In this document: positions 9,101 to 39,100 of the stretch, piece after piece
Position numbering within the stretch: the first letter of the stretch is position 1
Layout: the number at the start of each line of letters is the position of its first letter
Origin: Pristiophorus japonicus
Lineage: Eukaryota
Direction of reading: 5' to 3'
Length of the DNA: 64,000 nucleotides
Assembly (NCBI RefSeq): GCF_044704955.1
Contig: NC_091987.1
Span: 133,114,001 to 133,178,000 of the forward strand
The notes under the pieces: generated by a model
What the model was told of the DNA's origin: nothing
Databases searched by the model: none
What the model saw: the letters and a program-made list of their open reading frames with translations, nothing else
Translations under genes and position numbers: made by a program

Positions 9101-10652
9101 ATGAGCTCTCCATCCAAGCCGACTGCCGGGTAGTTATGCCCCAGAGGGCAGGGAAGCATTCATCAGGGAATTCCACAGCGTGCACCCAGGTATCGTGCTG
9201 ATGAAGGCCATTGCCCGGTCACATGTGTGGTGGCTGGGAATTTTTTTTTTTTTTTTTAATTTAAATTTGTAGCCAATCTTTCCAATTCTTTGTCAAATCA
9301 CAAACGCCAGAGGTCACCTTGCACACATCAAGGATCACTCTGCGCCAATGCTCTTAGCCAAAAGGCCTAGAGCCACTGCACCGTTCCTGGAAGTACTGCA
9401 ATACCAGGTTCGTGCCATGGAGGTGGATGGGTCAGGCCCCCCACACACCTCCATGGAGGTGGATGGGTCAAGCCACCCCACCCACCTCCTATTTCCAAAA
9501 AGCATAGGAGAACCACCTTCCTGATCCAGGGAGAACCACTTTGGGGTCATGGTTACTCCCCTGTCAGGTCAGTTACGCATGATCTTAGCCAAAAGGCCGA
9601 GAAGCGATGTGGTGGCTGGGAATTGACTCAGACCTGGAACACTGAGTTCGCAAGTGCACGATGTGTGCCCAGCTAGGTAATGCCCCCAGGGAGGCCCGCT
9701 CAGCCAGTGGTCCTGGCCCACCAGGCCATGGTCACGTATTCACGTAGACTACGTGGGCCCGTTCATGGGAAAAGAAATTCTCATTGTGGTTGATACGTAC
9801 TCGAAATGGATCGAGTGCATCATTTTGAATTTGTGCACGACATCCACCACCGTGGAGAGTCTGCGCGCGGTCTTTGTGACCCACAGCTTGCCGGACATCC
9901 TTGTTAGCGATAATGGCCCATGTTTCACAAGCTACGAATTCCGGGAGTTCATGTCTGGTAATGGCAATAACCATGTCAGGACAGCACCGTTCAAGCCGGC
10001 CTCCAATGGCCAGGTGAAACGTGTGGTCCAAATCATAAAACAAGGCTCCGGATTCAAGGACCCTCCCTTCAGTGCCACATATCGCGCCTCCTGCTGGTCT
10101 ATAGCTCCCGACCGCACTCACTCACAGGGGTCCCGCCCGCAGAGCTACTCATGAAACGAACACTCAAAACTCGGCTGTCCCTCATTCATCCAGTCCTGTC
10201 CGACATTGTTGAGGGCAAGCGCCAGTCTCAAAACGAGTACCATGACCAAAATTCAAGGGGGAGATGTATAGAAATTGATGACCCCATATTTGTTCTCAAT
10301 CACGCTTTGGGGCCCAAATAGCTTGAGGGCACTGTAATAGACAAAGAGGGAAATAGGGTCATAGTGGTTGAACTTAACAATGGGCAGATATGCCGCAAGC
10401 ATCTGGACCAAGTAAAAAAAAAAGGTTCAGCATTGACACTGAGGAACCTGAGGAAGATCATGAGACGGTATTCACACCACCGCCAGTGAACGAGCAACAA
10501 GAACATTCAGCAGTGTGCACAGTCCTTGCGGTCAGCCCGGACAAGCCAGAATTACCATGGTGACAGACACGCAGACCAAGGCTCAACAACCAGAGCCGCA
10601 ACTGCGGCGCTCCATGAGAGAGCGCAGACCACCCGAGAGACTTAACCTATGA
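6138..10652 (+). pseudogene. Gypsy B gag-pol (PR-RT-RNaseH-IN) with multiple stops and frameshifts
   Basis: MELDMGAS protease, WASPIV / RICGDYK / KLDLTSAY RT, CDASSYGVG RNase H, VVDTYSKW / SDNGPCF integrase in successive ORF fragments. Confidence 0.92.
9243..9608 (-). mobile_element. SINEU-like retroposon built from U2 and U1 snRNA fragments, with poly(A) tail and ~16-bp TSD
   Basis: Minus strand starts ATCGCTTCTCGGCCTTTTGGCTAAGATCA (U2 nt 1-29), then U1-like ACTGACCTGACAGGGGAGTAACCATGA..., U2 Sm/SLIII/SLIV-like CCTGGTATTGCAGTACTTCCAGGAACGGTGCA, and an A15-17 tail. TSD GTGGTGGCTGGGAATT at 9227-9242 and 9609-9624. Confidence 0.88.
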
Positions 10653-12844: not shown

Positions 12845-15161
12845 ATGAGTAAAAGTGGAGGGCAGAGAAACCAAAGGCAAGAAACAAAAAAGGCCACTGA
12901 ATATAAAAGGGCTGCAAGAGGGATCAAAACTAAAAATCATGGTTTAAAAACTAGGATGAAAACACTCTACCTAAATACACGCAGCATTCGAAATAAAGTA
13001 AATGAGTTGACGGCACAAATCATTACAAATGGGTATGATTTGGTGGCCATTACAGAAACATGGTTGCAGGGTGGCCAAGACTGGGAATTAAACATACAGG
13101 GGTATCTGACGATTCAGAAAGATAGGCAAGAAGGGAAAGGAGGTGGGGTAGCTCTGTTAATAAAAGATGATATCAGGGCACTTGTGAGGGATGATATTGG
13201 CTCCAATGAAGAAAATGTTGAATCATTGTGGGTGGAGATTAGAAATAGTAAGGGGAAAAAGTCACTGGTCGGCGTAGTTTATAGGCCCCCAAATAATAAC
13301 TTCACGGTGGGGAAGGCAATAATCAAGGGAATAATGGAGGCATGTGAAAAAGGAACGGCAGTAGTCATGGGGGATTTTAACCTACATATCGATTGGTCAA
13401 ATCAAATCGCACGGGGTAGCCTGGAGGAGGAATTCATAGAATGCATACGGGATTGTTTCTTAGAACAGTATGTTACAGAACCTACAAGGGAGCAAGCTAT
13501 CTTAGATCTGGTCCTGTGTAATGAGACAGGAAAAATAAACGATCTCCTCGTAAAACATCCTCTCAGAATGAGTGATCACAATATGGTGGAATTTGTAATA
13601 CACATTCAGGATGAGGAAGTTGTGTCAGAAACGAGCGTACTATGCTTAAACAAAGGGGACTACAGTGGGATGAGGGCAGAGTTGGCTAAAGTAGACTGGA
13701 AACAAGGACTAAACAGTGGCACAATTGAGGAACAGTGGAGGACTTTTAAGGAGCTCTTTCATAGTGCGCAACAAAAATATATTCCAGTGAAAAAGAAGGG
13801 CGGCAAGAGAAGGGATAACCAGCCGTGGATAACCAAGGAAATAAAGGAAAGTATCAAATCAAAGACCAATGCGTATAAGGTGGCCAAGGTTAGTGGGAAA
13901 CTAGAGGATTGGGAAAATTTTAAGCAACAGCAAAGAATGACTAAAAAAGCAAAAAAGAAAGGGAAGATAGATTACGAAGGTAAACTTGCGCAAAACATAA
14001 AAACAGATAGTAAAAGCTTTTACAGATATATAAAACGGAAAAGAGTGACTAAAGTAAATATTGGTCCCTTAGAAGATGAAAAGGGGGATTTAATAATGGG
14101 AAATGTGGAAATGGCTGAGACCTTAAACAATTATTTTGCTTCGGTCTTCACAGTGGAAGACACAAAAACAATGCCAAAATTTGCAGGCCACAGGAATGTG
14201 GGAAGGGAGGACCTTGAGACAATCACTATCACTAGCGGGGTAGTGCTGGACAGGCTAATGGGACTGAAGGTAGACAAGTCCCCTGGTCCTGATGAAATGC
14301 ATCCCAGGGTATTAAAAGAGATGGCGGAAGTTATAGTAGATGCATTCGTTATAATCTATCAAAATTCTCTGGACTCTGGGGAGGTACCAGCGGATTGGAA
14401 AGCAGCTAATGTAACGCCTCTGTTTAAAAAAGGGGGCAGGCAAAAGGCAGGTAACTATAGGCCGGTTAGTTTAACATCTGGAGTGGGGAAAATGCTTGAA
14501 ACTATCATTAAGGAAGAAATAGCGGGACATCTAGATAGGAATAGTGCAATCAAGCAGACGCAGCATGGATTCATGAAAGGGAAATCATGTTTAACTAACT
14601 TCCTGGAATTCTTTGAGGATATAACGAGCATGGTAGATAGAGGTGTACCGATGGATGTGGTGTATTTAGATTTAAAAGGCATTCGATAAGGTGCCACACA
14701 AAAGATTACTGCAGAACATAAGGGTACGCGGAGTCAGAGGAAATGTATTAGCATGGATAGAGAATTGGCTGGCGAACAGAAAGCAGAGAGTGGGGATAAA
14801 TGGGTCCTTTTCCGGTTGGAAATCAGTGGTTAGTGGTGTGCCACAGGGATCAGTGCTCGGACCACAACTGTTTACAATATACATAGATGACCTAGAAGGG
14901 GGACAGAGTGTAGTGCAAGAAAATTTGCAGATGACACTAAGATTAGTGGGAAAGCGGGTTGTGTCGAGGACTCAGAGAGGCTGCAAAGAGATTTAGATAG
15001 GTTAAGCGAATGGGCTAAGGGTTTGGTAGATGGAATACAATGTCGGAAAGTGTGAGGTCATCCACCTTGGGAAAAAACACAGTAAAAGGGAATATTATTT
15101 GAATGGGGAGAAATTACAACATGCTGCGGTGCAGAGGGACCTGGGGGTCCTTGTGCATGAA
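12845..15161 (+). pseudogene. CR1 ORF2 5' part (APE endonuclease + most of RT), with frameshifts near 14675 and 14900
   Basis: ITETW, VYRPP, GDFN, SDH, KSPGPD, NYRPVSLTS and [10 protein letters not shown] motifs. Confidence 0.92.
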
Positions 15162-15374
15162 ACTCTTTTGAGTTTACCTGCAAAAACATAAACATTAAAA
15201 CCATGCCACCCGACCTGGGTGACACAGCAGCCATTTTCAAGGCCCCTTTTTTTTTTTGTTTTTTTGGGTTTTTTTGGGGCGCTAAAATCAAATTTTTCCA
15301 GTGCCCCCTATAAAAGGGGAGGGGGACACTAAAAGCACCGGCAATGAAAACAAATTAAACTTTAAAACGTAAAA

Positions 15375-18300
15375 TCAAATTAAAATTTGGTTGCCGGGCG
15401 TGATGATGCACTCCAGTCCCTCCGGTGCCCACCTCTCGCGGAAGGCCGCGAGCGTACCGGTGGACACCGCGTGCTCCATCTCCAAGAACACCCTGGACCG
15501 GATGTAAGAGCGGAAGAGAGGCAGGCAGTCAGGTTGAACGACCCCCTCGACCGCCCGCTGCCTGGACCGGCTGATGGCACCCTTGGCCGTGCCCAGGAGC
15601 AGTCCTACGAGGAGGCCTTCGGACCTACCCGCTCCCCTCCGCACAGGGTGCCCAAAGATCAGGAGAGTGGGACTGAAGTGCAGCCAGAATTTCAGGAGCA
15701 GCCCCTTCAAATAATGGAACAGGGGCTGCAACCTCGTGCACTCAATAAAAACATGGAACACGGACTCCTCCAGACCGCAGAAATTGCAGGCGGCCTGGGA
15801 GTCCGTGAACCGGCTTAAAAATTTGTTGCACGGCACTGCTCCGTGCACCACCCTCCAGGCCAAGTCCCCGATGAATAGTGGGAGGACCCCTGCGTAGAGT
15901 GCCCTCCATCGGGGACCCCCGCCTCCTCCGGACGGCAAGATGGTACGCCATGGCGTGTCCGGACGGCCGGCGAGGATGGCAAAGTTGAGGGTGTGCAGGA
16001 GCAGCCCATACAGGAAAACCCTCCGCGCGGAACTGAAAGGCACGGAGGGGATTTCTCCGAGGTGGCTCAAGTTGTGAGGCGCCGGCCCCCGAGGGAGGTT
16101 CCGGGGTTTGGCGCCGATGAGGAATTCCGTCCGGACGGGGGTCAGTTCGGACGGGATCTCCCCACGTGCTTGAGCCTCCTCGATGCACCTAACGGAGTCA
16201 GGGCCCAGAGCTGTTTTTAGCGGCTCGATGGCATCGGCCGCGTGGCGGACGTTGGCAGAGTTTAGGCGCCGCGCCAGCGTGTCTGGCGCCATCCAGCCCG
16301 CTCCTCCGCCATCGAGCAGGTCCCTGACCCTGGTCACCTCACCAGCCACAGCCCTCTCTTCCGACCGCCACATGAAACCTCGGCCGTGGAGGTACGGATT
16401 CCCGAGCAGCGGCTCCTGCAGGACGGCCGCCACTCCAGCCGGCGGAGAGCTGCGCTTGGTGGAGACTTTGTTCCAGACCCTGATGAGTTCCCTGTAAAAG
16501 ACAGGCAGCTCCCGGAGGGCGGTCCTGGCACCCCCCAAGTTCACAAACAGGAGCTGCGTGTCATAATTGAGGTCGCGCTGCTGGCGGAAGAAATACCTCA
16601 CCAGAGCACACCACCTAGGAGGGGGCTCGACGAAAAGGTATCTCTGCAGGGTCTGAAGACGGAAAGTCGCGAGCTGGGCGCTGACGCACACCAACGACTG
16701 ACCGCCCTCCTCAAGCGGGAGACTCAAGACCGCGGCAGAGACCCAGTGCTTCCTGTTGTTCCAGAAGAAGTCCACCAGCTTCTTCTGTATCTTGGCGACA
16801 AACGCAGGGGGAGGGGTCAAAGTGACCAGCCGGTACCACAGCATTGCGGCCACCAGCTGGTTTATGACTAGCGCTCGACCCCTGTAGGACAGCACTCGGA
16901 GCAGTCCTGTCCAGCGCCCTAGGCGAGCGGCGACCTTGGCCTCCAGCTCCTGCCAGTTCGCCGGCCAGGCTCCCTCGTCGGGGCTAAGGTAGACTCCCAG
17001 ATAGAGGAGATGGGTCGTGCTCCAGGCAAAAGGCCTGAGCTCCTCCGGCAGGGAGTCCACCCGCCACTGACCCACCAGGAGTCCGGAACATTTCTCCCAG
17101 TTGATCCTGGCGGAGGACGCGGCCGAGTAAATCTCCTGGCACTCACGCATTCTCCGCAGGTCAGCGGGATCTTCTACCGCGAGGAGCACGTCATCGGCGT
17201 AAGCCGAGAGGACGACCTCCACACCCGGCCCTTGCAGAGCCAGTCCCGTCAACCTCGTCCGCAAGAGGCGCAAGAAAGGCTCCACGCAAACGGCGTATAA
17301 CTGGCCGGACATGGGGCATCCCTGGCGCACCCCTCTCCTAAAGCGAAGCGGCGCCGTCAAGGACCCGTTAACCTTAATCAGACACTCCGCGGCGGCGTAC
17401 AAAAGTCGGATCCGGGCGACGAAATGCGTCCCGAACCCGAAAGCGCGCAGAGTTCCGAGCAGATAGTCATGATCCACCCTGTCGAACGCCTTCTCTTGGT
17501 CGAGGGATAGGAAGGCGACCGACAGACCAGCCTCCTGGGAACAATGGATGAGGTCCCGGACCAGATGGATGTTATCGTGGATTGTCCGGCCCGGGACCGT
17601 GTAGGACTGGTCGGGGTGGATCATGTGGTCCAGCACGGCACCAAGGCGAGCAGACATCGCCCTGGCGAAGATTTTGTAGTCCGTGCTGAGGAGGGAGACC
17701 GGGCGCCAGTTCTTAAGGAGGCGGAGATCGCCCTTCTTAGGCAGCAGGACGATGACTGCCCTGCGCCAAGAGAGGGGCATCTCACCGGTCGCCAGACTTT
17801 CCCCCAGGACCCGCGCGTAGTCGCTCCCCAGGACGTCCCAGAACGCCCTGTGGAACTCCACGGTCAGCCCGTCCAGCCCCGGGGATTTTCCCCTCGAGAG
17901 CCGGTCGAGGGCACCGGTCAGCTCCGCCAGGCTTAGCGGAGCTTCCAGATTTTCGGCGCCCTCCGGGCCGACCTGCGGCAGGTCCTCCCACAAAACTCTA
18001 CGCGCTTCCTCGCTGGACGGATCCGGAGAGAACAGAGCCCCGTAATATTCACGGGCCCTGTTGTTGACGCCCTCCGGATCCGAGACGAGAGAGCCGTCGT
18101 CGGCCAGCAGCGTCAAGAGCTGCTTACGGACACTCTGCCTTTTTTCCAGCGAGTAGAAGAAGGGGGAGCCGCGGTCCAGATCCCGCAGGATCCGGATCCG
18201 CGACCTCACGAACGCGCCTCGGGACCCGACGAGCTGCAGGTCCTTCAGCGCGGCCTTCTTCGCTTCGTACACCGTCCGCAGGGCCGGGTCCTGGACGACT

Positions 18301-19274
18301 TGACCGAGACGGGCTTCCAGGTCGAGCACCTCTTTTTCTAGGCGCCCGACTCTGGCCGCCCGCCTCTTGGTCGACCCCCTCGCGTACTCTTGACAGAAGA
18401 CGCGGACGTGAGCCTTGCCCACGTCCCACCATAGCCTCAAGGAGGGGAAGCCCCCCTGCTTCCTTCTCCAGTCGGACCAGAATCGACGGAACGAGTCCTG
18501 GAACCGCACTTCCTCCAGCAGCCGGTTGTTAAAGTGCCAGTACGTGGACCCCGTCCTCGCGCGGAGCGAAGCGAGCTCCGCCCACACCAGGTGGTGGTCC
18601 GAACACGGCACCGGCCGCATGGAGGCCGCCGGGACGCAGGAAACGTACGCCCGAGACACGTAAAGGCGGTCGACTCTAGACCACCCTACTCCAGGCCTCA
18701 CCCAAGTAAAGGCGCTGGAGTCGGGGTGGAGATTTCGCCAGACGTCCACCAAGTCGAAGGACCCGACCAGGTCCCTCAACTTCTCCATCGCCGTCATGCA
18801 CTGCGGGGCACCGGAGCGGTCCCTCGCCTCGAGGGTGCAGTTAAAATCCCCCCCGAGGACAATGCAGTCGCCGACGTCGACGGAGCCAAGAAGAGCGGAC
18901 ACCTCTTCAAAGAAGCGCGTTTGCTGCGGGCCGGGCTGAGGGGCATACACGTTCACGAGATGGAGCGGCACGTCCCCCAGGCGAACCGTTACGTGCAGCA
19001 AGCGGCCTGGCACGGGCTCCTCGACCCCCAAGATCTCCGGCTGAAAATGCGGGCCCAGTAAGGTGGCCACCCCACTAGAAATGGCGGTGAGGTGGCTCAT
19101 GCAGACCTCTCCTTGCCATTCCAGGAGCCACGTGGCTTCGTCTCCCGGAACGGTGTGGGTTTCTTGCAGGAAGCACACAGCATATTTCCCCTCCCGCAGG
19201 AGCGAAAAATTGTCAAATCTACGGCGTGCCCCTCTGCCGCCGTTGATGTTGAGGCTGGCTATGGTTATCTTCAT
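15375..19274 (-). CDS. Tx1 ORF2 (APE endonuclease - RT - C-terminal CCHC), apparently intact, 1299 aa from MKITIASLNING
   Basis: FLQETH, GGDFN, RVDRLY, SDH, LDQEKAFDRV, RQGCPMSG, YADD and CNFCG..ESVFHVFIEC motifs; no stops. Confidence 0.93.
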   Translation of the reverse strand: MKITIASLNINGGRGARRRFDNFSLLREGKYAVCFLQETHTVPGDEATWLLEWQGEVCMSHLTAISSGVATLLGPHFQPEILGVEEPVPGRLLHVTVRLGDVPLHLVNVYAPQPGPQQTRFFEEVSALLGSVDVGDCIVLGGDFNCTLEARDRSGAPQCMTAMEKLRDLVGSFDLVDVWRNLHPDSSAFTWVRPGVGWSRVDRLYVSRAYVSCVPAASMRPVPCSDHHLVWAELASLRARTGSTYWHFNNRLLEEVRFQDSFRRFWSDWRRKQGGFPSLRLWWDVGKAHVRVFCQEYARGSTKRRAARVGRLEKEVLDLEARLGQVVQDPALRTVYEAKKAALKDLQLVGSRGAFVRSRIRILRDLDRGSPFFYSLEKRQSVRKQLLTLLADDGSLVSDPEGVNNRAREYYGALFSPDPSSEEARRVLWEDLPQVGPEGAENLEAPLSLAELTGALDRLSRGKSPGLDGLTVEFHRAFWDVLGSDYARVLGESLATGEMPLSWRRAVIVLLPKKGDLRLLKNWRPVSLLSTDYKIFARAMSARLGAVLDHMIHPDQSYTVPGRTIHDNIHLVRDLIHCSQEAGLSVAFLSLDQEKAFDRVDHDYLLGTLRAFGFGTHFVARIRLLYAAAECLIKVNGSLTAPLRFRRGVRQGCPMSGQLYAVCVEPFLRLLRTRLTGLALQGPGVEVVLSAYADDVLLAVEDPADLRRMRECQEIYSAASSARINWEKCSGLLVGQWRVDSLPEELRPFAWSTTHLLYLGVYLSPDEGAWPANWQELEAKVAARLGRWTGLLRVLSYRGRALVINQLVAAMLWYRLVTLTPPPAFVAKIQKKLVDFFWNNRKHWVSAAVLSLPLEEGGQSLVCVSAQLATFRLQTLQRYLFVEPPPRWCALVRYFFRQQRDLNYDTQLLFVNLGGARTALRELPVFYRELIRVWNKVSTKRSSPPAGVAAVLQEPLLGNPYLHGRGFMWRSEERAVAGEVTRVRDLLDGGGAGWMAPDTLARRLNSANVRHAADAIEPLKTALGPDSVRCIEEAQARGEIPSELTPVRTEFLIGAKPRNLPRGPAPHNLSHLGEIPSVPFSSARRVFLYGLLLHTLNFAILAGRPDTPWRTILPSGGGGGPRWRALYAGVLPLFIGDLAWRVVHGAVPCNKFLSRFTDSQAACNFCGLEESVFHVFIECTRLQPLFHYLKGLLLKFWLHFSPTLLIFGHPVRRGAGRSEGLLVGLLLGTAKGAISRSRQRAVEGVVQPDCLPLFRSYIRSRVFLEMEHAVSTGTLAAFRERWAPEGLECIITPGNQILI

Positions 19275-19300
19275 GGCAAAAGCATAGTGCAACCTCTACC

Positions 19301-21399
19301 TTAACCTATTGTGGGGGAGGGAGCGGAGTCTTTTGTTGAACTCTGCTCCCTCCGCAGCCCAGCGAGGAGTCCCTCGAGCTCGCGCAGCTCAAGGTGTTGC
19401 GCCTTTGTCAAGGGCCCGCCCGCGGCCAAGGTTTTGACGGCGGCGCGGACGGACCCCTTGATCAGCTCTGGCTCGGACCATTTTTCCAGGGCCAGTCGGG
19501 CTTGGTTGCAGCGACCCCGGCTCTGGACCAAAAAGTCCCGGAGTTCCTTTGCAGGAATGAGGATGGTCTCGGCGGCGGCCGCGAGCAGATCCACCGCCTC
19601 GCTGGCGGTGGTCTCTAGGTCTTCACCCGCGTCCCCCACCGAGTCCCCGTCCTCCTCCGGGAGGTGGCCGCCAGCAGCCGGCCCATCGACCGCACAAGGT
19701 ACGGCAAATGAACCGGCCGCTCCAACCGGCCCTGGCTCTGCCCCGATCCCACCCCCAGGATCGTCGGCAGAGGAGTCCCCACTGGGCTCTTTTAAAAATG
19801 GTGCTGGGTCGGGAAATGACAGCGGAAGGGGTTCCCCCTCCGCCCCAGGAACTGGGGAACAAGGAGAGACCCGGCCATAGGAAATCCCCAGGCTCCCCAA
19901 GTGCACCAGCTCCAAAGTAAGGGGCGAGGGTGGGTGTTCCTCCCCCTCCCCGCTGCCACCCCCCGGCCCAGCATCTACAGTGTCATAAAAAACATTTGTT
20001 TCATTTTCTGCCGGGTCGAGCGACTCCCGGGGGAAGTTATGTATTGGCTGGGCGGGCTCAGGTTCGGCCTTTTCGGCCCCGCCCGCCTCAGTCCCCGGGA
20101 CGCCCGGCCCGGCGGCAATGCATTCCTCCGCGATCCCCATGCCCCCCACGACAGGCAGATCTTCCACGCCATCCCCGGGAGGCAGAGGCTGGGCAGCCTC
20201 GACTGTCTCACCCTCCCCGGGGACAGACTCCTCTCGCCTACGGCGCAGCTTGGGGGCGCTGGTGGGGGACGCGGGACACGCGGCGGGCACCGACTCCTCC
20301 GCGGAGGGATGTTGTTCCCCCTCCGCCTCAACGGAGCGGCGCCTCCTTTTGTTGCTGGAGGTGCGCTGAGGCAGGGAGACCTCCATGTCTGCCGAGGCCT
20401 CCCGCACCACCCCCCCTTTTCCTTTTCTTGCCCGCGCCCGAGCCCCTCTGTGGTATTGGTCAAGGGCTCAGGCACGGGCTCGGGGCACCCCGCGCTCGCC
20501 GGTGACTGGGTTGGGCTGAGCGCGGTGGTCAAATTGTCTGGCGCACTGAGGGGACCCGCCTCTGGATGTTTTGCCTTCTTCCGCGCCTTCTTTCCGGTCG
20601 GACGCTCTCCCTCCCCCCCTCCGGAGGCCCTGAAAACAAAGGCCTCCGGCGATGCCCGCGCACCCATGGCTCCCGGCACGCGGACGCAACTAGGGAGAGG
20701 GGTGGCGGCGGCGCCAGCCTTGGCCGCCTTCGGTGGTTTGGCGGCCTTGGAGGCGGGGCAGTTCTTGCGAATGTGCCCCACCTCCCTACAGGCATGGCAC
20801 CGCACGCCGTCCGACGTCCAGAAGACGCGGTAGGCAGTCCCCTCGTGCACCACATTAAAGTGCCCTTCCGTCATGTCCTCCCGCGCCAGCCGGACAAAGA
20901 GCTGGCGGCGGAAGGAGAACACGTGGCACAGGCTGTTCTCCCTGAGGCCGAGCGGTATGGGGTTGATCCCCGACCTTACCTCCCCCAGTTGGTGTAGGTG
21001 AGGGAGGAGGAGCTCAGCGGAAACAAATGGCGGGACGTTTGACACGATGACCCTCTGCGCGGTGGCCTCGAGAGAGTCCACCGGCAGGAACGTCCCGCCC
21101 ACCGTGAGCCCCTTTTCAAGGGCCAGGGACACCGCCCGCTCCGACCCCAGGAAGAAAACAGCCTTCCCAGACATCTTGGAGGCCGCGACAATGGCCGAGG
21201 GGCCGACTACCCCAGCCATCGCCCGCACGCACTCCTCAATGCTCATTGTGGGGTGAGTGTAGCTCTTGACCCCGTGTTTCCTGGTTATAAGTTGAAAAGG
21301 TGGCAGGGCAGCGGGTGGCGCAGGAGGTGCCGTGGAAGCGGTTGCCACCTGCGCATATGTCTTCGCTGGCCCTGCCACCGGCGTGGATGGGGTCGCCAT
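19301..21399 (-). pseudogene. Tx1 copy 1 ORF1 (CCHC knuckle, long Pro/Glu-rich C-terminal region) with one frameshift at ~20410
   Basis: CHACREVGHIRKNC knuckle; ORFs 19975-21402 and 19301-20410 join by a frameshift in a homopolymer run when compared with copy 2. Confidence 0.85.
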
Positions 21400-22596
21400 C
21401 ACGGGGTCCCTTAAGGGCTACACCCACCCCAAAGTCACAGGCCTTAATGGTCTTTATTGGCCTTGTATATTTAACTGAGCAGAGGAGCCCTTAACGAGGC
21501 ACCACTCCCCTAGTTGGCAATTGGGGAGGGGCCTTGCTCCCTCTGCTCAGTTGTCTTAATTGTTTTATCTTTTTTTTTAAATTAGAAGAAAGGGGTCTCA
21601 GAGAGAGAGGGGAGAAACAGAGTAACAGAGAAGGAGAGAGGGGGGGGGGGTGGGAAGGGGGGATGGGGGGACTGCGAGGGCAGGTCTCCCCTCGCAGCTG
21701 TGGGTGGGTGCAATCCCCAGATGGCAAAACACAAACACAGTCTTTGGGGTGGTCTTCAGGTGAGGGGAGAAGATGTCTTCACCTGGGGCAGCTAGAGCCA
21801 CCAGGCACACACTCCTAACGATGTTTAATTAGGTGATTAAGAAAAAATCTTCAGCCTGGTAGCTCCAGCTATCCCAGGCTAGGCAATTGGGGGGGGGGGG
21901 TTCAATTGTGGGGGGGGCCTAGTTGCAAGCAAGGCCCCCACACACACTACCACACACACACACCCCCCGCGATGTTCCGGCCCTCAGTGGTCTTCTTTCC
22001 TCCCCCCACCGATATAACAAAGTCTTTTTGGGAAATGCACCCACACCCACCTGTAGAAATGTAGAGTCTCCCTCCTTCCACACTGGATGTTGTTGTTGTT
22101 GGTCTTTTCCCCCTCTCTCCAACACCTTGCAGAAATGGTAAAGAGTTGTTTAAAGTTTTCTGCTTTTTCCTCCTCTCCCTCTGGGTGAAAGTTGGTGGTG
22201 AAGCCCCTTCCTTCCTTCTCTTCCTGGGCTGGTCTCAGGGCTCTCCAGGCAGGGGCAAAAGTTGATAGCTGCTCCTCTCACAGCAGCTCAGCTCCTCTGA
22301 GCAGGACACGCCTCCACTGCTCCACAATTGGTCCTTGTGCATGAAACTCTTTTAGAGTCTACCTGCAAAACATAAACATTAAACTGTGCCACCCGACCTG
22401 GGTGACACACCAGACATTTACAAGGCCCTTTTTTTCCTTTTTTTGGTTTTTTTTTGTGTTTTTTTTTTGTGTTTTTTTTTGTGTTTTTTTTTTTTTTTGG
22501 GCACTAAAATCACAATTTCTCCGGTGCCCCCTATAAAAGGGAAGGGGACACTAAAAGCACCGGCAATTAAAACAAATTAAACTTTAAAACGTAAAA

Positions 22597-25500
22597 TCAA
22601 ATTAAAATTTGGTTGCCGGGCGTGATGATGCACTCCAGTCCCTCCGGTGCCCACCTCTCGCGGAAGGCCGCGAGCGTACCGGTGGACACTGCGTGCTCCA
22701 TCTCCAAGGACACCCTGGACCGGATGTAAGAGCGGAAGAGAGGCAGGCAGTCAGGTTGAACGACCCCCTCGACCGCCCGCTGCCTGGACCGGCTGATGGC
22801 ACCCTTGGCCGTGCCCAGGAGCAGTCCTACGAGGAGGCCTTCGGACCTACCCGCTCCCCTCCGCACAGGGTGCCCAAAGATCAGGAGCGTGGGACTGAAG
22901 TGCAGCCAGAATTTCAGGAGCAGCCCCTTCAAATAATGGAACAGGGGCTGCAACCTCGTGCACTCAATAAAAACATGGAACACGGACTCCTCCAGACCGC
23001 AGAAATTGCAGGCGGCCTGGGAGTCCGTGAACCGGCTTAAAAATTTGTTGCACGGCACTGCTCCGTGCACCACCCTCCAGGTCAAGTCCCCGATGAATAG
23101 TAGGAGACCCCTGCGTAGAGTGCCCTCCATCGGGGACCCCCGCCTCCTCCGGACGGCAAGATGGTACGCCATGGCGTGTCCGGACGGCCGGCGAGGATGG
23201 CAAAGTTGAGGGTGTGCAGGAGCAGCCCGTACAGGAAACCCCTCCGCGCGGAACTGAAAGGCACGGAGAGGATTTCCCCGAGGCGGCTCAAGTTGTGAGG
23301 CGCCGGCCCCCGAGGGAGGTTCCGGGGTTTGGCGCCGATGAGGAATTCCGTCCGGACGGGGGTCAGTTCGGACGGGATCTCCCCACGTGCTTGAGCCTCC
23401 TCGATGCACCTAACGGAGTCAGGGCCCAGAGCTGTTTTTAGCGACTCGATGGCATCGGCCGCGTGGCGGACATTGGCAGAGTTTAGGCGCCGCGCCAGCG
23501 TGTCTGGCGCCATCCAGCCCGCTCCTCCGCCATCGAGCAGGTCCCTGACCCTGGTCACCTCACCAGCCACAGCCCTCTCTTCCGACCGCCACATGAAACC
23601 TCGGCCGTGGAGGTACGGATTCCCGAGCAGCGGCTCCTGCAGGACGGCCGCCACTCCAGCCGGCGGAGAGCTGCGCTTGGTGGAGACTTTGTTCCAGACC
23701 CTGATGAGTTCCCTGTAAAAGACAGGCAGCTCCCGGAGGGCGGTCCTGGCACCCCCCAAGTTCACAAACAGGAGCTGCGTGTCATAATTGAGGTCGCGCT
23801 GCTGGCGGAAGAAATACCTCGCCAGAGCACACCACCTAGGAGGGGGCTCGACGTAAAGGTATCTCTGCAGGGTCTGAAGACGGAAAGTCGCGAGCTGGGC
23901 GCTGACGCACACCAACGACTGACCGCCCTCCTCAAGCGGGAGACTCAAGACCGCGGCAGAGACCCAGTGCTTCCTGTTGTTCCAGAAGAAGTCCACCAGC
24001 TTCTTCTGTATCTTGGCGACAAACGCAGGGGGAGGGGTCAAAGTGACCAGCCGGTACCACAACATTGCGGCCACCAGCTGGTTTATGACTAGCGCTCGAC
24101 CCCTGTAGGACAGCACTCGGAGCAGTCCTGTCCAGCGCCCTAGGCGAGCGGCGACCTTGGCCTCCAGCTCCTGCCAGTTCGCCGGCCAGGCTCCCTCGTC
24201 GGGGCTAAGGTAGACTCCCAGATAGAGGAGATGGGTCGTGCTCCAGGCAAAAGGCCTGAGCTCCTCCGGCAGGGAGTCCACCCGCCACTGACCCACCAGG
24301 AGTCCGGAACATTTCTCCCAGTTGATCCTGGCGGAGGACGCGGCCGAGTAAATCTCCTGGCACTCACGCATCCTCCGCAGGTCAGCGGGATCTTCTACCG
24401 CGAGGAGCACGTCATCGGCGTAAGCCGAGAGGACGACCTCCACGCCCGGCCCTTGCAGAGCCAGTCCCGTCAACCTCGTCCGCAAGAGGCGCAGGAAAGG
24501 CTCCACGCAAACGGCGTATAACTGGCCGGACATGGGGCATCCCTGGCGCACCCCTCTCCTAAAGCGAAGGGGCGCCGTCAAGGACCCGTTAACCTTAATC
24601 AGACACTCCGCGGCGGCGTACAAAAGTCGGATCCGGGCGACGAAATGCGTCCCGAACCCGAAAGCGCGCAGAGTTCCGAGCAGATAGTCGTGATCCACCC
24701 TGTCGAACGCCTTCTCTTGGTCGAGGGATAGGAAGGCGACCGACAGACCAGCCTCCTGGGAACAATGGATGAGGTCCCGGACCAGATGGATGTTATCGTG
24801 GATTGTCCGGCCCGGGACCGTGTAGGACTGGTCGGGGTGGATCATGTGGTCCAGCACGGCACCAAGGCGAGCAGACATCGCCCTGGCGAAGATTTTGTAG
24901 TCCGTGCTGAGGAGGGAGACCGGGCGCCAGTTCTTAAGGAGGCGGAGATCGCCCTTCTTAGGCAGCAGGACGATGACTGCCCTGCGCCAAGAGAGGGGCA
25001 TCTCCCCGGTCGCCAGACTTTCCCCCAGGACCCGCACGTAGTCGCTCCCCAGGACGTCCCAGAATGCCCTGTGGAACTCCACGGTCAGCCCGTCCAGCCC
25101 CGGGGATTTTCCCCTCGAGAGCCGGGCGAGGGCACCGGTCAGCTCCGCCAGGCTTAGCGGAGCTTCCAGATTTTCGGCGCCCTCCGGGCTGACCTTCGGC
25201 AGGTCCTCCCACAAAACTCTACGCGCTTCCTCGCTGGACGGATCCGGAGAGAACAGAGCCCCGTAATATTCACGGGCCCTGTTGTTGACGCCCTCCGGAT
25301 CCGAGACGAGAGAGCCGTCGTCGGCCAGCAGCGTCAAGAGCTGCTTACGGACACTCTGCCTTTTTTCCAGCGAGTAGAAGAAGGGGGAGCCGCGGTCCAG
25401 ATCCCGCAGGAACCGGATCCGCGACCTCACGAACGCGCCTCGGGACCCGACGAGCTGCAGGTCCTTCAGCGCGGCCCTCTTCGCTTCGTACACCGTCCGC

Positions 25501-26495
25501 AGGGCCGGGTCCTGGACGACTTGACCGAGACGGGCTTCCAGGTCGAGCACCTCTTTTTCTAGGCGCCCGACTCTGGCCGCCCGCCTCTTGGTCGACCCCC
25601 TCGCGTACTCTTGACAGAAGACGCGGACGTGAGCCTTGCCCACGTCCCACCATAGCCTCAAGGAGGGGAAGCCCCCCTGCTTCCTTCTCCAGTCGGACCA
25701 GAATCGACGGAACGAGTCCTGGAACCGCACGTCCTCCAGCAGCCGGTTGTTAAAGTGCCAGTACGCGGACCCCGTCCTCGCGCGGAGCGAAGCGAGCTCC
25801 GCCCACACCAGGTGGTGGTCCGAACACGGCACCGGCCGCATGGAGGCCGCCGGGACGCAGGAAACGTACGCCCGAGACACGTAAAGGCGGTCGACTCTAG
25901 ACCATCCAACTCCAGGCCTCACCCAAGTAAAGGCGCTGGAGTTGGGGTGGAGATTTCGCCAGACGTCCACCAAGTCGAAGGACCCGACCAGGTCCCTCAA
26001 CTTCTCCATCGCCGTCATGCACTGCGGGGCACCGGAGCGGTCCCTCGCCTCGAGGGTGCAGTTAAAATCCCCCCCGAGGACAATGCAGTCGCCGACGTCG
26101 ACGGAGCCAAGAAGAGCGGACACCTCTTCAAAGAAGCGCGTTTGCTGCGGGCCGGGCTGAGGGGCGTACACGTTCACGAGATGGAGCGGCACGTCCCCCA
26201 GGCGAACCGTTACGTGCAGCAAGCAGCCTGGCACGGGCTCCTCGACCCCCAAGATCTCCGGCTGAAAATGCGGGCCCAGCAAGATGGCCACCCCACTAGA
26301 AATGGCGGTGAGGTGGCTCATGCGGACCTCTCCTTGCCATTCCAGGAGCCACGTGGCTTCGTCTCCCGGAACGGTGTGGGTTTCTTGCAGGAAGCACACC
26401 GCATATTTCCCCTCCCGCAGGAGCGAAAAATTGTCAAATCTACGGCGTGCCCCTCTGCCGCCGTTGATGTTGAGGCTGGCTATGGTTATCTTCAT
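22597..26495 (-). pseudogene. Tx1 copy 2 ORF2, single 1-bp deletion near 23105
   Basis: 3899 nt versus 3900 nt in copy 1; ORFs 23082-26567 and 22597-23409 together give the full protein. Confidence 0.88.
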
Positions 26496-26521
26496 GGCAA
26501 AAGCATAGTGCAACCTCTTCC

Positions 26522-28612
26522 TTAGCCTATTGTGGGGGAGGGAGTGGAGTCGTTTGTTGACCTCCACTCCATCAGCAGCCCAGCGAGGAACTTTTTGAGC
26601 CGGCGCAGCTCAAGGCCTTGAGCCTTTGATAAGGGCCCGCCCGCGGCCATGGTTTTAGCGGCGGCGCGGACGGACGCGACGAGCAGCCCCGGCTCGGACC
26701 ATCTTTCCAGGGCCAGACGGGCTTGGTCGCGGCGACCCCGGCACTGGACCAAAAAGTCCCGGAGTTCCTCTGCGGGAATGAGGAGGGTCTCAGTGGCGGC
26801 CGCGAGCAGATCCACCGCCTCACTGGCGATGGACTAGAGATCTTCACCCGCGTCCTCCACCGAGTCCCCGTCCCCCTCCGGGAGGTCGCCGCTAGCAGCC
26901 GGCCCGTCGACCGCAGGAGGTACGGCAAACGGCCCGGCCGCTCCATTTGGCCCTGGCTCTGCCCCGATCCCACCCCCAGGATCGTCGGCAGAGGAGTCCC
27001 CACTGGGCTCTTTTAAAATTGGTGCTGGGTCGGGAAGCGACAGCGGAAGGGGTTCCCCCTCCTCCCCAGGAACCGGGGAACAGGGAGAGACCTGGTCAAA
27101 GTAATGTTCCAGGTCCTCCAATTCCCCCAGCTCCACAGTAGGGGGCGAGGGTTGTTGTTCTTCTCCCTCCCCGGCGCCACCCCCCAGCCCAGCGTGAACG
27201 GATTCCATAAAATTGGCATTTTCAGAGTCGAGCGACTCCCGGGGGAAGTTGGATAATAGCTGGGCGGGCTCAGGTTCAGCCTTTTCGGCCCCGCCCGCCT
27301 CAGTCTCCGGGACGCTCGACCCGGCGGCTACGCATTCTTCCACTGGCCCCACGCCCCCCACGACAGGCAGATCTGCCACGCCCTCCCCAGGAGGCAGCGG
27401 CTGGGCAGCCTCGACTGCCTCACCCTCCCCGGGGACAGACTCCTCGCGCCTGCAGCGCAATTTGGGGGCGCTGGTGGGGGACGCGGGACACGCGGCGGGC
27501 ACCGCCTCCTCCGCAGAGGGACGTTGTTCCCCCTCCGCCTCATCGGGGCGGTGCCTCCTTTTGTTCCTGGGGGTGCGCGGAGGCAGGGGGACCTCCATGT
27601 CTGCCGAGGCCTCCCGCTCCGCCCCCCCCTTTTCCTTATCTTGCCTTCGCCTGAGCCCCTCTGCGGTATTGGTCAAGGGCTCGGGCACGGGCGCAGGGCA
27701 CCCCGCGCTCGTCGGTGACTGGGTTGGGCTGAGCGCGGTGGTCAAACTTTCCGGCGCACTGAGGGGACCCGCCTCTAGATGTCTCGTCTTCTTCCGCGCC
27801 TTCTTTTCGATCGGACGCTCTCCCTCCCCCCCGCCGGAGGCCGTGAAAACAAAGGCCCCCGACGATGCCCGCGCACCCATGGCTCCCGGCACGCGGACGC
27901 AACTAGGGGGAGGGGTGGCGGCGGCGCCAGCCTTGGCCGCCTTCGGTGGTTTGGCGGCCTTGGAGGCGGGGCAGTTCTTACGAACGTGCCCCACCTCCCT
28001 ACAGGCATGGCACCGCACGCCGTCCGACGTCCAGAAGACGCGGTAGGCAGTCCCCTCGTGCACCACATTAAAGTGCCCTTCCGTCATGTCCTCCCGCGCC
28101 AGCCGGACAAAGAGCTGGCGGCGGAAGGAGAACACGTGGCGCAGGCTGTTCTCCCTGAGTCCGAGCGGTATGGGGTTGATCCCCGACCTTACCTCCCCCA
28201 GTTGGTGTAGGTGAGGGAGGAGGAGCTCAGCGGAAACAAATGGCGGGACGTTTGACACGATGACCCTCTGCGCGGTGGCCTCGAGAGGGTCCACCGGCAG
28301 GAACGTCCCGCCCACCGTGAGCCCCTTTTCAAGGGCCAGGGACACCGCCCGCTCCGACCCCAGGAAGAACACGGCCTTCCCAGACATCTTGGAGGCTGCG
28401 ACAATGGCCGAGGGGCCGACTACCCCAGCCATCGCCCGCACGCACTCCTCGATGGTCATTGTGGGGTGAGTGTAGCTCTTGACCCCGTGTTTTTTAGTAA
28501 TAAGTGTAAAAGGTGGCAGGGCAGCGGGTGGCGCAGGAGGTGCCGTGGAAGCGGTTGCCACCTGCGCATATGTCTTCGCTGGCCCTGCCACCGGCGTGGA
28601 TGGGGTCGCCAT
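26522..28612 (-). pseudogene. Tx1 copy 2 ORF1 with an in-frame TAG at 26834-26836
   Basis: EDL* where copy 1 reads EDLE; the frame continues to ...SPTIG* at 26522. Confidence 0.85.
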
Positions 28613-29522
28613 CACGGGGTCCCTTTAAGGGCTACACCCACCCCAAAGTCACAGGCCTTAATGGTCTTTAATGGCCTCGTATATTAACTGAGCAGAGGAG
28701 CCCTTAACGAGGCACCTCTCCCCTCGTTGGATTGGGGAGAGGCCTTGCTCCCTCTGCTCAGTTGTCTCAATTGTTTTTTTTTTAAATTAGGAAGAAAGGG
28801 CTCTCAGAGAGAGAGGGGAGAAACAGAGTAACAGAGAAAGAGAGAGGGGGGTGGGAAGCGGGGGGGGGAACTGCGAGGGCAGGTCTCCCCTCGCAGCTGT
28901 GGGTGGGTGCAATCCCAGATGGCAAAACACAAAGTCTTTGGGGTGGTCTTCAGGTGAGGGGAGAAGATGTCTTCACCTGGGGTAGCTAGAGCCAACCAGG
29001 CACACACTCCCAACGATGTTTAATTAGGTGATTAGGAGAAATTCTTGAGCCTGGTAGCTCCAGCTATCCCAGGCTAGGCAATTGGGGGGGGGGGGGTTCA
29101 ATTGTGTGTGGGGCCTAGTTGTAAGCAAGGCCCCCACACACACTTCCACACACACACACGATGTTCCGGCCCTCAGTGGTCTTCTTTCCTCCCCCCACCG
29201 ATATAACAAAGTCTTTTTGGGACTGCACCAACACCCACCTGTAGAATGGTAGAGTCTCCCTCCTTCCACACTGGATGTTGTTGGTTTTTTCCCCCTCTCT
29301 CCAACTCCTTGCAGAAATGGTAAAAAGTTGAAATGTTTTCTGCTTCCTCCTCTCCCTCTGGGTTAAAGTTGGTGGTGAAGCCCCTTCCTTCCTTCTCTTC
29401 CTGGGCTGGTCTCAGGGCTCTCCAGGCAGGGGCAAAAGTTGATAGCTGCTCCTCTCACAGCAGCTCAGCTCCTCTGAGCAGGACACGCCTCCACTGCTCC
29501 ACAATTGGTCCTTGTGCATGAA

Positions 29523-36107: not shown

Positions 36108-39100
36108 CTTCACCATAATGCATGCAGTTTCATCAGTATCACCTTCACTAGTATCACCTTCACCAGTTTCACCTTTACCAGTTTCACCTTCACCAGTATC
36201 ACATTCAGCAGTATCGCCTTCACCAGTATCACCTTCGCCAGTTTCACCTTCACCAGCTTCACCTTCACCTTCACCAGTTTCACCTTCACCAGTTTCACCT
36301 TCACCAGTATCACCTTCACCAGTTTCACCTTCACCTTCACCAGTTTCACCTTCACCTTCACCAGTATCACCTTCACCAGTATCACCTTCACCAGTTTCAC
36401 ATTCACCTTCACCAGTATCATCTTCACCAGTATCACCTTAACCAGTTTCACCTTCACCTTCACCAGTATCACCTTCACCAGTTTCACCTTCAATAGTATC
36501 ACCTTCACCACTTTCACCTTCACCTTCACCAGTATCACCTTCACCAGTTTCACCTTCACCATCACCAGTATCATCTTCACCAGTTTCACCTTCACCAGTA
36601 TCACCTTCACCAGTTTTACCTTCACCAGTATTACCTTCACCAGTATCATCTTCACCAGTTTCACCTTCACCAGATTCACCTTCACCAGTATCACCTTCAC
36701 CTTCACCAGTTTCCCCTTCACCAGTTTCACCTTCACCTTCACCAGTATCACCTTCACCAGTTTCACCTTCACCAGTTTCACCTTCACCTTCACCAGTATC
36801 ACCTTCACCTTCACCAGTGTCACCTTCATCAGTTTCACCTTCACCATCACCAGTTTCACCTTCACCAGTATCACCTTCACCAGTTTCACCCTCACCTTCA
36901 CCAGTATCACCTTTACCAGTTTCACCTTCACCTTCACCAGTTTCACCTTCACCTTCATCAGTATCACCTTCACCATCACCAGTATCACCTTCACCAGTTT
37001 CACCTTCACCAGTATCACCTTCACCAGTATCACCTTCAACTTCACCAGTATCACCTTCACCAGTTTCACCTTCACCTTCACCAGTTTCACCTTCAGCAGT
37101 TTCACCTTCACCTTCACCAGTTTCACCTTCACCTTCACCAGTATCACCTTCACCAGTATCACCTTTACCAGTATCACCTTTACCAGTTTCATCTTCACCT
37201 TCACCAGTATCACCTTCACCAGTATCACATTCACCTTCACCAGTTTCACCTTCACCTTCACCAGTATCACCTTCACCAGTATCACCTTCACCTTCACCAG
37301 TTTCACCTTCACCTTCACCAATATCACCTTCACCAGTATCACCTTCACCTTCACCAGTATCACCTTCAACTTCACCAGTATCACCTTCACCAGTATCAAC
37401 TTCACCAGTTTCACCTTCACCAACACCAGTATCACCTTCACCAATATCACCTTCACCTTCATCAGTATCACCTTCACCTTCACCAATATCACCTTCACCA
37501 GTATCACCTTCACCTTCACCAGTATCACCTTCACCAGTTTCACCTTCACCTTCACCAGTATCACCTTCACCAGTATCACCTTCACCTTCACCATTATCAC
37601 CTTCACCAGTTTCACCTTCACCTTTACCGGTATCACCTTCACCAGTATCACCTGCACCTTCACCAGTATCACCTTCACCAGTATCACCTTCACCAGTTTC
37701 ACCTTCACCTTCACCAGTTAAACCTTCACCTTCACCAGTATCACCTTCACCAGTATCACATTCATCAGTTTCACCTTCACATGCACCAGTATTACCTTCA
37801 CCAGTTTCACCTTCACCTGCACCAGTATCACCTTCACCAGCATCACCTTCACCTTCACCAGTATCACCTTCACCTTCACCAGTATCACCTTCACCAGTAT
37901 CACCTTCATCAGTTGCACACCTTCACCAGTTTCACCTTCACCTTCACCATTATCACTTTCACCAGTATCACCTTCACCTTCACCAGTATCACCTTCACCA
38001 GTCTCACCTTCACCAGTTTCACCATCACCTTCACCAGTTTCACCTTCATCTTCACCAGTATCACCTTCACCAGTATCACCTTCACCAGTTTCACCTTCAC
38101 CTTCACCAGTATCACCTTCACCAGTTTCACATTCACCAATTTCACCTTCACCTTCACCAGTTTCAGCTTCACCTTCACCAGTATCACCTTCACCAGTATC
38201 AGCTTCACCTTCACCAGTATCACCTTCACTTTCACCAGTATTACCTTCACCATTATCACATTCACCAGTTTCACCTTCACCTTCACCAGTATCACCTTCA
38301 CCAGTATTAACTTCACCTGTATCACCTTCACCAGTATCACATTCACCAGTTTCACCTTCACCTTCACCAGTTTCACCTTCACCAGTTTCACCTTCACCTT
38401 CACCAGTATCACCTTCACCAGCTTCACCTTCACCTTCACTAGTATCACCTTCACCTTCACGAGTATCACCTTCACCAGTATCACCTTCACCGACACCAGT
38501 TTCACCTTCACCAGTATCACCTTCATCAGTTTCGCCTTCACCTTCACCAGTTTCACCTTCACCTTCACCAGTATTACCTTCACCAGTATCATCTTCACCA
38601 GTTTCACCTTCACCAGATTCACCTTCACCAGTATCACCTTCACCTTCACCAGTTTCCCCTTCACCAGTTTCACCTTCACCTTCACCAGTATCACCTTCAC
38701 CAGTTTCACCTTCACCAGTTTCACCTTCACCTTCACCAGTATCACCTTCACCTTCACCAGTGTCACCTTCATCAGTTTCACCTTCACCATCACCAGTTTC
38801 ACCTTCACCAGTATCACCTTCACCAGTTTCACCCTCACCTTCACCAGTATCACCTTTACCAGTTTCACCTTCACCTTCACCAGTTTCACCTTCACCTTCA
38901 TCAGTATCACCTTCACCATCACCAGTATCACCTTCACCAGTTTCACCTTCACCAGTATCACCTTCACCAGTATCACCTTCAACTTCACCAGTATCACCTT
39001 CACCAGTTTCACCTTCACCTTCACCAGTTTCACCTTCAGCAGTTTCACCTTCACCTTCACCAGTTTCACCTTCACCTTCACCAGTATCACCTTCACCAGT

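Follow-up and report, generated by a model that had tools for sequence, protein, structure and literature searches.

The window analysed here, 64,000 nucleotides of the Pristiophorus japonicus genome, carries one copy of a short retroposon built from pieces of U2 and U1 snRNA, and it is near certain that this copy belongs to a real and young family of the SINEU type. In the explanation that we favor, with a probability of roughly 0.65, the family is moved by a LINE of the U2-targeting Keno type and its source copies sit inside U2 genes, where they would use the host's upstream promoter. The observations underneath are the family itself, its TSDs and poly(A) tracts, a U2 site and a secondary site that it has in common with the LINE, and copies that lie seamlessly behind U2 flanks; the course of events that would connect them is reconstructed from sequence.

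Parts of the element in the window

The copy spans 9608-9243 on the minus strand, with U2 +1 at 9608, and consists of 352 nt plus poly(A). It lies antisense within the zinc-binding domain of a Gypsy integrase region (Table 1). An earlier sequence-only reading of this stretch had named a series of U2 and U1 parts on the minus strand in a set order, headed by an exact piece of U2 and bounded by poly(A) and a TSD of about 16 bp. When the pieces were aligned to the genome's own U2 and U1 genes all of the named parts were found in that order, and the exact head, the A-tract and the repeats were confirmed; a possible 17th base of the TSD is ambiguous with U2 +1. Within the outer head the stretch that pairs with the branch point (nt 33-38) is altered and cut, and the Sm-site-like U-run lies at 9501-9497. 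The second SLIII-like hairpin is a duplication missing in the oldest copies, and the inner U2 head extends to nt 38 in the oldest relative, family B. The element reads as a U2 mimic in which nt 36-96 would have been swapped for two U1 stem-loop-I pieces, with an inner U2 head and a duplicated tail.

Table 1. The SINE copy, its parts and its host element (positions in the window)
Feature	Position	Strand	Evidence
Broken Gypsy-type LTR element, integrase region	9105..10154	+	PF17921 piece E 2e-4 (below cut-off); PF00665 E 2e-11
TSD, 5' copy	9609..9624	-	16 nt
Outer head, U2 nt 1-35	9574..9608	-	33/35 to genome's own U2; nt 1-29 exact
U1 nt 3-52 piece (stem-loop I, changed loop)	9525..9573	-	42/50 to genome's own U1
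Second U1 piece, nt 28-47	9507..9526	-	19/20 to genome's own U1
U2 Sm-site-like U-run and first SLIII-like hairpin (U2 97-145)	9454..9504	-	37/51
Second SLIII-like hairpin and U2 stem-loop IV	9376..9453	-	U2 124-186, 53/65 at 9440-9376
Inner U2 head, nt 7-29	9349..9371	-	21/23 to genome's own U2
Tail, internally duplicated derivative of 45-nt sequence	9258..9348	-	compared with older copies
Poly(A) tract	9243..9257	-	sequence
TSD, 3' copy	9227..9242	-	16 nt

All pieces beat shuffles of the whole element, with none of 1000 reaching the local score of five pieces and 4/1000 reaching that of the Sm/SLIII piece. The Rfam check that had been proposed came out differently for the two snRNAs: the U2 match is above its cut-off of 46 (61.6 bits, E 3e-11), while the U1 match is below its cut-off of 69.5 (22.5 bits, E 0.004). 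The predicted fold of the element RNA is better than that of 100/100 shuffles (z -3.8).

The tail had been called unique, and this description has to be dropped, since the tail goes back to 45 nt that family B already has, of which it is an internally duplicated version. A suggested comparison with LINE 3' ends gave no match to Keno or to the Tx1 element of the window, and an Rfam search with the ancestral 45 nt returned nothing at E up to 10. We also considered a U6 origin for the tail. A 12-nt exact match in one variant beat all but 8/2000 shuffles, compared to 19/2000 for the reverse-strand U6 control, and the window's own variant was matched or beaten by 63/2000. Given that the reverse control is nearly as good and that older copies show the stretch to have arisen by duplication, this origin was rejected. 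Rfam matches to the prion pseudoknot and mir-1003 fall on the duplicated hairpin, are under their cut-offs and were taken as chance.

Family size, subfamilies and insertion sites

A 28-nt word from the tail has 4,150 exact matches in the assembly searched (5.9 Gb, 4,318 contigs) and its reversed control has 0. The family therefore has at least 4,150 copies, in several subfamilies that are 1-4% apart; the claim of a multi-copy snRNA-headed SINE family outside crocodilians holds, and the alternative of a single-copy chimera fails. The variant tail of type C adds 197 matches. The best 40 copies are 97-100% identical, save one older copy at 82%. Copies of one head-defined group differ pairwise by 1.1-2.7% on average, or by 4.4% for the oldest A copies, in a sample that leans young because it includes best-hit copies. 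Junctions are common to the copies within each subfamily, which makes them a unit with shared structure and not independent chimeras.

The structure of individual copies was followed in a sample of 97, taken from the first 100 listed places on contig C1. The U2 head is kept in 48 of them (start at U2 nt 1-18), the other 49 are 5'-truncated, and 25 adjoin another family copy. A TSD of at least 9 nt (median 15) was called in 57 of the 97 and in 18 of 30 type-C copies. From these 75 sites we used 70, leaving out 5 that lie behind poly(A). C precedes the TSD at 43, and 46 fit the tentative pattern [A/C/G][C/T]|A[A/T], whose A behind the bar is in part a consequence of the poly(A). The L1-type consensus TT|AAAA occurs at 1 of the 70. 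The sequence-only reading had proposed machinery of the L1/Tx1 type; the Tx1 part of this stands, with Keno as the likely partner, and the L1 part does not.

Natural copies form a graded series from family B to subfamilies A-D, ordered here by closeness to U1/U2 and not from a tree. Family B begins with an almost complete U2 of the C19-array type that carries 5 nt of 3' flanking sequence; U2 7-38, the 45-nt sequence and poly(A) come after it. In old A copies U2 36-96 is replaced by the two U1 pieces and parts of the tail are duplicated, and in A (the window's subfamily), A2, A3, D and C there is a second SLIII-like hairpin and a progressively decayed U1 part. Subfamily D carries a fresh, perfect U2 1-38. 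The U2 heads end at about nt 35 in A, at nt 38 in D and at nt 38 in the inner head of the oldest B. T-runs of 4-6 are found inside the element in every subfamily, at nt 15-18 and at the Sm-like site, which would argue against Pol III by the reasoning in the available text of PMC4494074. The copies of family B (L059 2200-2900, L104, L300, L306, L309) belong to an older SINE with a whole U2 in which the Keno site is preserved, and they serve as a landing pad for younger copies and for family B itself.

U2 arrays, the Keno-type LINE and common target sites

The U2 genes come in two kinds of array, with units of ~765 bp (contigs C19, C1003, C1832, C1868 and C4309) versus 18-21 kb (C9). At 84 places U2 sequence from nt 38/39 onward stands behind a poly(A) tract. 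Over 120 kb of C19, 11 upstream flanks lead into a Keno-type LINE, 5 into a type-C SINE and 1 into an intact U2. The counts of intact U2 and type C are 24 and 5 on C1832, 26 and 4 on C1868, 40 and 0 on C1003, and 2 and 1 in 60 kb of C9. At 69.62-69.72 Mb of C19 (G000), 16/17 array units are taken by Keno or SINE. Tandem Keno junctions in the C19 array use a degenerate target within Keno's own 5' end, and the Keno 5' UTR has an octamer word near nt 57.

The LINE measures 5.7 kb and has an ORF1 of 581 aa and an ORF2 of 1147 aa that has APE, RT and zinc domains. Its 15 array copies are 99.2-100% identical and have their 3' junction at U2 nt 38/39. Keno itself is said to have been presented as a U2-specific LINE of the Tx1 clade by Kojima and Fujiwara in 2004. 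The 3' flank of our LINE agrees with that given for Keno, which starts at U2 nt 39 (PMC6136364; PMC4640811; these and the other papers cited are taken from the portions of their text that were available), and its APE + RT ORF2 is Tx1-like. The name Keno rests on site and domains as no protein match is labelled Keno; the LINE's best named matches are RT proteins of newt (47%) and pufferfish (39%). The 3' end has 1,960 exact matches, nearly all dispersed (the first 30 listed all are), which points to a relaxed family, and in a sample of dispersed 3' ends most reach no more than ~75-90% likeness to the array copy. One Keno is inserted into a type-C head within the array, at the equivalent position. 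Within the TSD of an older Keno subfamily (L395, L305, L002; ~87% to the array copy) lie ~60 nt of a U2-like upstream flank of a third kind, and this subfamily may have captured part of a U2 promoter region.

The SINE uses the same U2 site. We found 34 dispersed copies that end at nt 39 of U2-like sequence, none of them inside arrays by coordinates, and those whose flanks were seen sit in family-B copies or short U2-like pieces. Set against ~4,150 tails these are <1% of copies. A second hot spot, one site in the Gypsy pol region that is hit in antisense (L311-L380), has 134 poly(A) junctions, of which 71 (70 loci) were classed: 58 are SINE A-D (56 by script, 2 by eye), 7 family B, 2 Keno and 4 other (3 bare A-tracts and 1 unidentified). 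No CR1, L2 or L1 tail was recognised among the 71, and two further Keno copies lie in trains at this spot, one of which begins at U2 +1 and is 99% like the array copy. At the U2 junctions and the hot spot the only LINE ends seen are of the Keno type, and the SINE and a Tx1 LINE have a target preference in common. We regard Keno as very probably the partner LINE of the SINE.

Some observations at the Gypsy sites stand apart from this. The 3 bare poly(A) insertions have a TSD, and L392 1363-2222, part of a train at the hot spot, has a full A3 SINE head joined directly to nt 1-860 of a young Keno. A second site in the Gypsy integrase region (L384, L387, L197, L198, L216) holds several older Keno copies and apparently one SINE; the site lies in an element of the kind that the window's SINE interrupts, ~190 nt from where that SINE went in.

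Candidate sources, competing explanations and known systems

With sources inside U2 genes the cycle would run as follows. An element whose first 28-38 nt are those of U2 would insert at nt 38/39 and have its 5' end joined by homology, leaving a locus made of the flank, a full-length SINE, poly(A) and U2 39-191. Pol II would start at U2 +1 and yield an RNA of ~520 nt, and the Keno ORF2p would prime on its internal A-tract, a step we propose because SINE and Keno have no tail in common. Most new copies would go to loose sites and have no promoter there, and the few insertions into U2 genes would renew the source pool and could refresh the head, as the perfect head of subfamily D suggests. The sources of the window's subfamily A would since have been lost or would lie in sequence that was not assembled. 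The outer head would then have come from a host U2 gene, whose 5' end was captured when the element inserted at nt 38/39. The sequence-only reading had seen layered 5' additions; the layers are there, and such a capture explains the outer one better than a free addition by template switching does. In favor of this, three U2 heads end at nt 35-38, which is the Keno site. Against the cycle as a whole, the 5' end of the older Keno subfamily lies ~60 nt upstream of U2 +1, which shows that +1 is not a necessary start for elements that come from U2 loci.

A check for a source locus with an upstream snRNA promoter had also been suggested, and the outcome depends on the subfamily. Type-C heads lie directly behind a U2 upstream flank, with no TSD, in 18 matches on five contigs and in two array types. 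The window-type head gave 0 matches at the two flanks tested, for which the 18 of type C are the positive control; the third flank was outside the search. All 30 dispersed type-C copies are 98.8-100% identical to a resident copy, 25/30 start at U2 nt 1-12, and 0/30 include array flank upstream of U2 +1. Array markers occur in 3/30 and the other 27 have neither marker: L280 is identical to the main array variant, L289 has its marker and L278 has the minor one, and the A tails of these three (27, 45 and 75) are the longest or near-longest. Among the resident copies 13/15 are identical, and that of C9 has a private change. These data fit sources in U2 genes with turnover, and they also fit arrays that are sinks.

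The latter is the core of the strongest competing explanation, which we consider unlikely. In it Keno is also the mover, the sources are dispersed copies that have chance flanking promoters, copies in U2 arrays are sinks multiplied by homogenisation, and heads are added by template switching onto abundant U2 or U1 RNA, as modelled for crocodilian SINEU. The lack of window-type copies behind the tested flanks and the 27 dispersed C copies free of array markers speak for it, and identical resident copies are what homogenisation would produce. Additionally, the U1 pieces and the whole-U2 addition of family B do need template switching, and mammalian retropseudogenes include U2 fragments that end near nt 35-39. 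However, 67 listed copies starting at nt 1-2 have no common 5' extension by eye, barring TSD, tandem or target context, L280 and L289 have array-specific markers, and heads end three times at the Keno site.

Both U1 types have an octamer ~205 nt upstream. Of the U2 flanks, that of C9 has only an octamer with one mismatch, at -437; the C19 type lacks an octamer even when one mismatch is allowed and, read by eye, shows no clear PSE, in which it differs from the U1 flanks. These flank results, together with the third flank in the older Keno, weaken the promoter argument. The only signs that the C19-type U2 is transcribed are indirect ones, namely family B and L310, a retrocopy of this U2 type with a poly(A) tail. 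Words of the element were found in sequencing runs, 69-97% of them in seven runs of one organism and 23% in one run of another, none listed as RNA, which weighs neither for nor against transcription. Taken together, we consider sources in U2 genes that use the host promoter to be probable for type C and less so for the window's subfamily A.

It is very unlikely that the element instead has an internal promoter, either Pol III or an undefined Pol II element, with any full-length copy able to be a source. Heads kept in 48/97 copies and several subfamilies active at similar times would agree with this, but the two T-runs stand in every subfamily and the available text of PMC4494074 gives no reported internal promoter for U1/U2 genes. 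Still less can be said for another LINE (L1, Utopia or a different Tx1 family) as the main partner, since insertions mostly away from U2, the lack of a common SINE and Keno tail, the divergence of most dispersed Keno 3' ends and the use of the same U2 site by Utopia (PMC4640811, in the text available) are set against the near absence of TT|AAAA, the Keno-type ends alone at both shared sites and the different target and missing poly(A) of the window's Tx1.

The 5'-truncated copies add a further feature. In 32/49 the sequence ends 0-25 nt 3' of the Sm-like U-run, as it does 12-21 nt after it in 4/5 truncated type-C copies, and only 6 copies end at a near-identical hairpin that the reverse transcriptase meets earlier. 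One reading of this peak is a protein block at the Sm site; others are G-rich microhomology or RNA cleavage. The canonical Sm-site consensus is purine-A-U5-G, a form that subfamilies C and D retain; in A-type copies the base before the U-run is a C. We offer as a tentative extension that the SINE may be a self-renewing parasite of snRNA genes, which would re-enter U2 genes seamlessly and regain a promoter, and whose RNA would be a disarmed snRNP mimic that rides snRNP export and import with Keno ORF2p. Such an RNA, with Sm site, SLIII and SLIV kept and the branch-point pairing stretch lost in most subfamilies, would be loaded with an Sm ring, whose footprint would account for the truncation peak. 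The same target-capture cycle would underlie crocodilian SINEU.

SINEU-1, -2 and -3 are known only from crocodilians in the available text of Kojima 2015 (PMC4494074), where they are linked to Tx1-Mar, of a group clustering with Keno. How an element whose U1/U2 head brings no internal promoter is transcribed is left open there, and flanking promoters are suggested. PMC5786205, PMC5753468 and PMC4758252 mention SINEU, in the text available, only by reference to that paper, and in a search mostly of open papers, seen in part, with Repbase and Dfam outside it, we found no shark SINEU or Keno-dependent SINE. The shark family is like SINEU in being a short non-coding poly(A)-tailed retroposon (<500 bp) with U1/U2-derived 5' parts, structural subfamilies, tandem insertions with a TSD between, internal T-runs, no tail in common with a LINE, a weak preference for another transposon and a partner from the part of Tx1 related to Keno; family B is built much like SINEU-3, which has a U2 with an internal deletion and ~40 unique nt. 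It differs in its elasmobranch host, in its youth, in a partner that is apparently the U2-targeting Keno itself where SINEU has the Mariner-targeting Tx1-Mar, and, compared to what is reported in the available text of PMC4494074, in copies within U2 gene arrays behind an upstream flank that offers a promoter. An origin independent of crocodilian SINEU is likely, as the heads match this genome's own U1/U2 variants and intermediates are present in this genome, SINEU being known here by description. With Keno the SINE has in common the 3' junction at U2 nt 38/39, tandem insertion and a U2-derived 5' end; unlike Keno it is non-coding and lacks a common 3' sequence, and the shark Keno-type family is relaxed.

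R2 and the SIDEs derived from it offer another comparison. R2 is co-transcribed with 28S rDNA (cited in PMC4494074, in the text available), and the SINE would likewise be a promoter-less element that depends on the transcription of a multicopy target gene. Unlike R2, the target is a Pol II snRNA gene versus Pol I rDNA and most SINE copies are dispersed, and unlike R2 or its SIDEs the SINE is made of target RNA plus U1 and not of LINE ends. In the shark genome a young family occurs together with a candidate partner LINE that is intact and with loci behind U2 flanks that may be its sources, and markers that separate array from dispersed copies make the question of SINEU transcription testable. 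If promoter borrowing is true it would answer how snRNA-headed SINEs are transcribed. It would also suggest a general route to new SINEs, in which the 5' end of a small-RNA gene becomes a head through a LINE that has this gene as its target.

The rest of the window has repeats of its own. On the minus strand, 15161-29522 holds a CR1-type element interrupted by two tandem full-length copies of a Tx1-type LINE. A single target word of 15-16 nt occurs there three times, poly(A) is missing and one ORF2 is open over 1306 aa; the two LINE copies possibly belong to a CR1-targeting Tx1 family. This Tx1 was rejected as partner of the SINE for its other target, its lack of poly(A) and of a tail match, and an ORF2 at 32% to that of Keno. 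For a CR1-type frame of the window the best named matches come from elasmobranchs, at 92% over half its length to a protein labelled sawshark and 67% to catshark and ray, compared to ~37-42% for other vertebrates; this one repeat-derived protein fits an elasmobranch host. A repeat tract at 586-2800 produces spurious open frames, and 38000-50000 and 58000-64000 are a long strand-skewed minisatellite with units of 6-9 nt and a GC skew of about -0.73.
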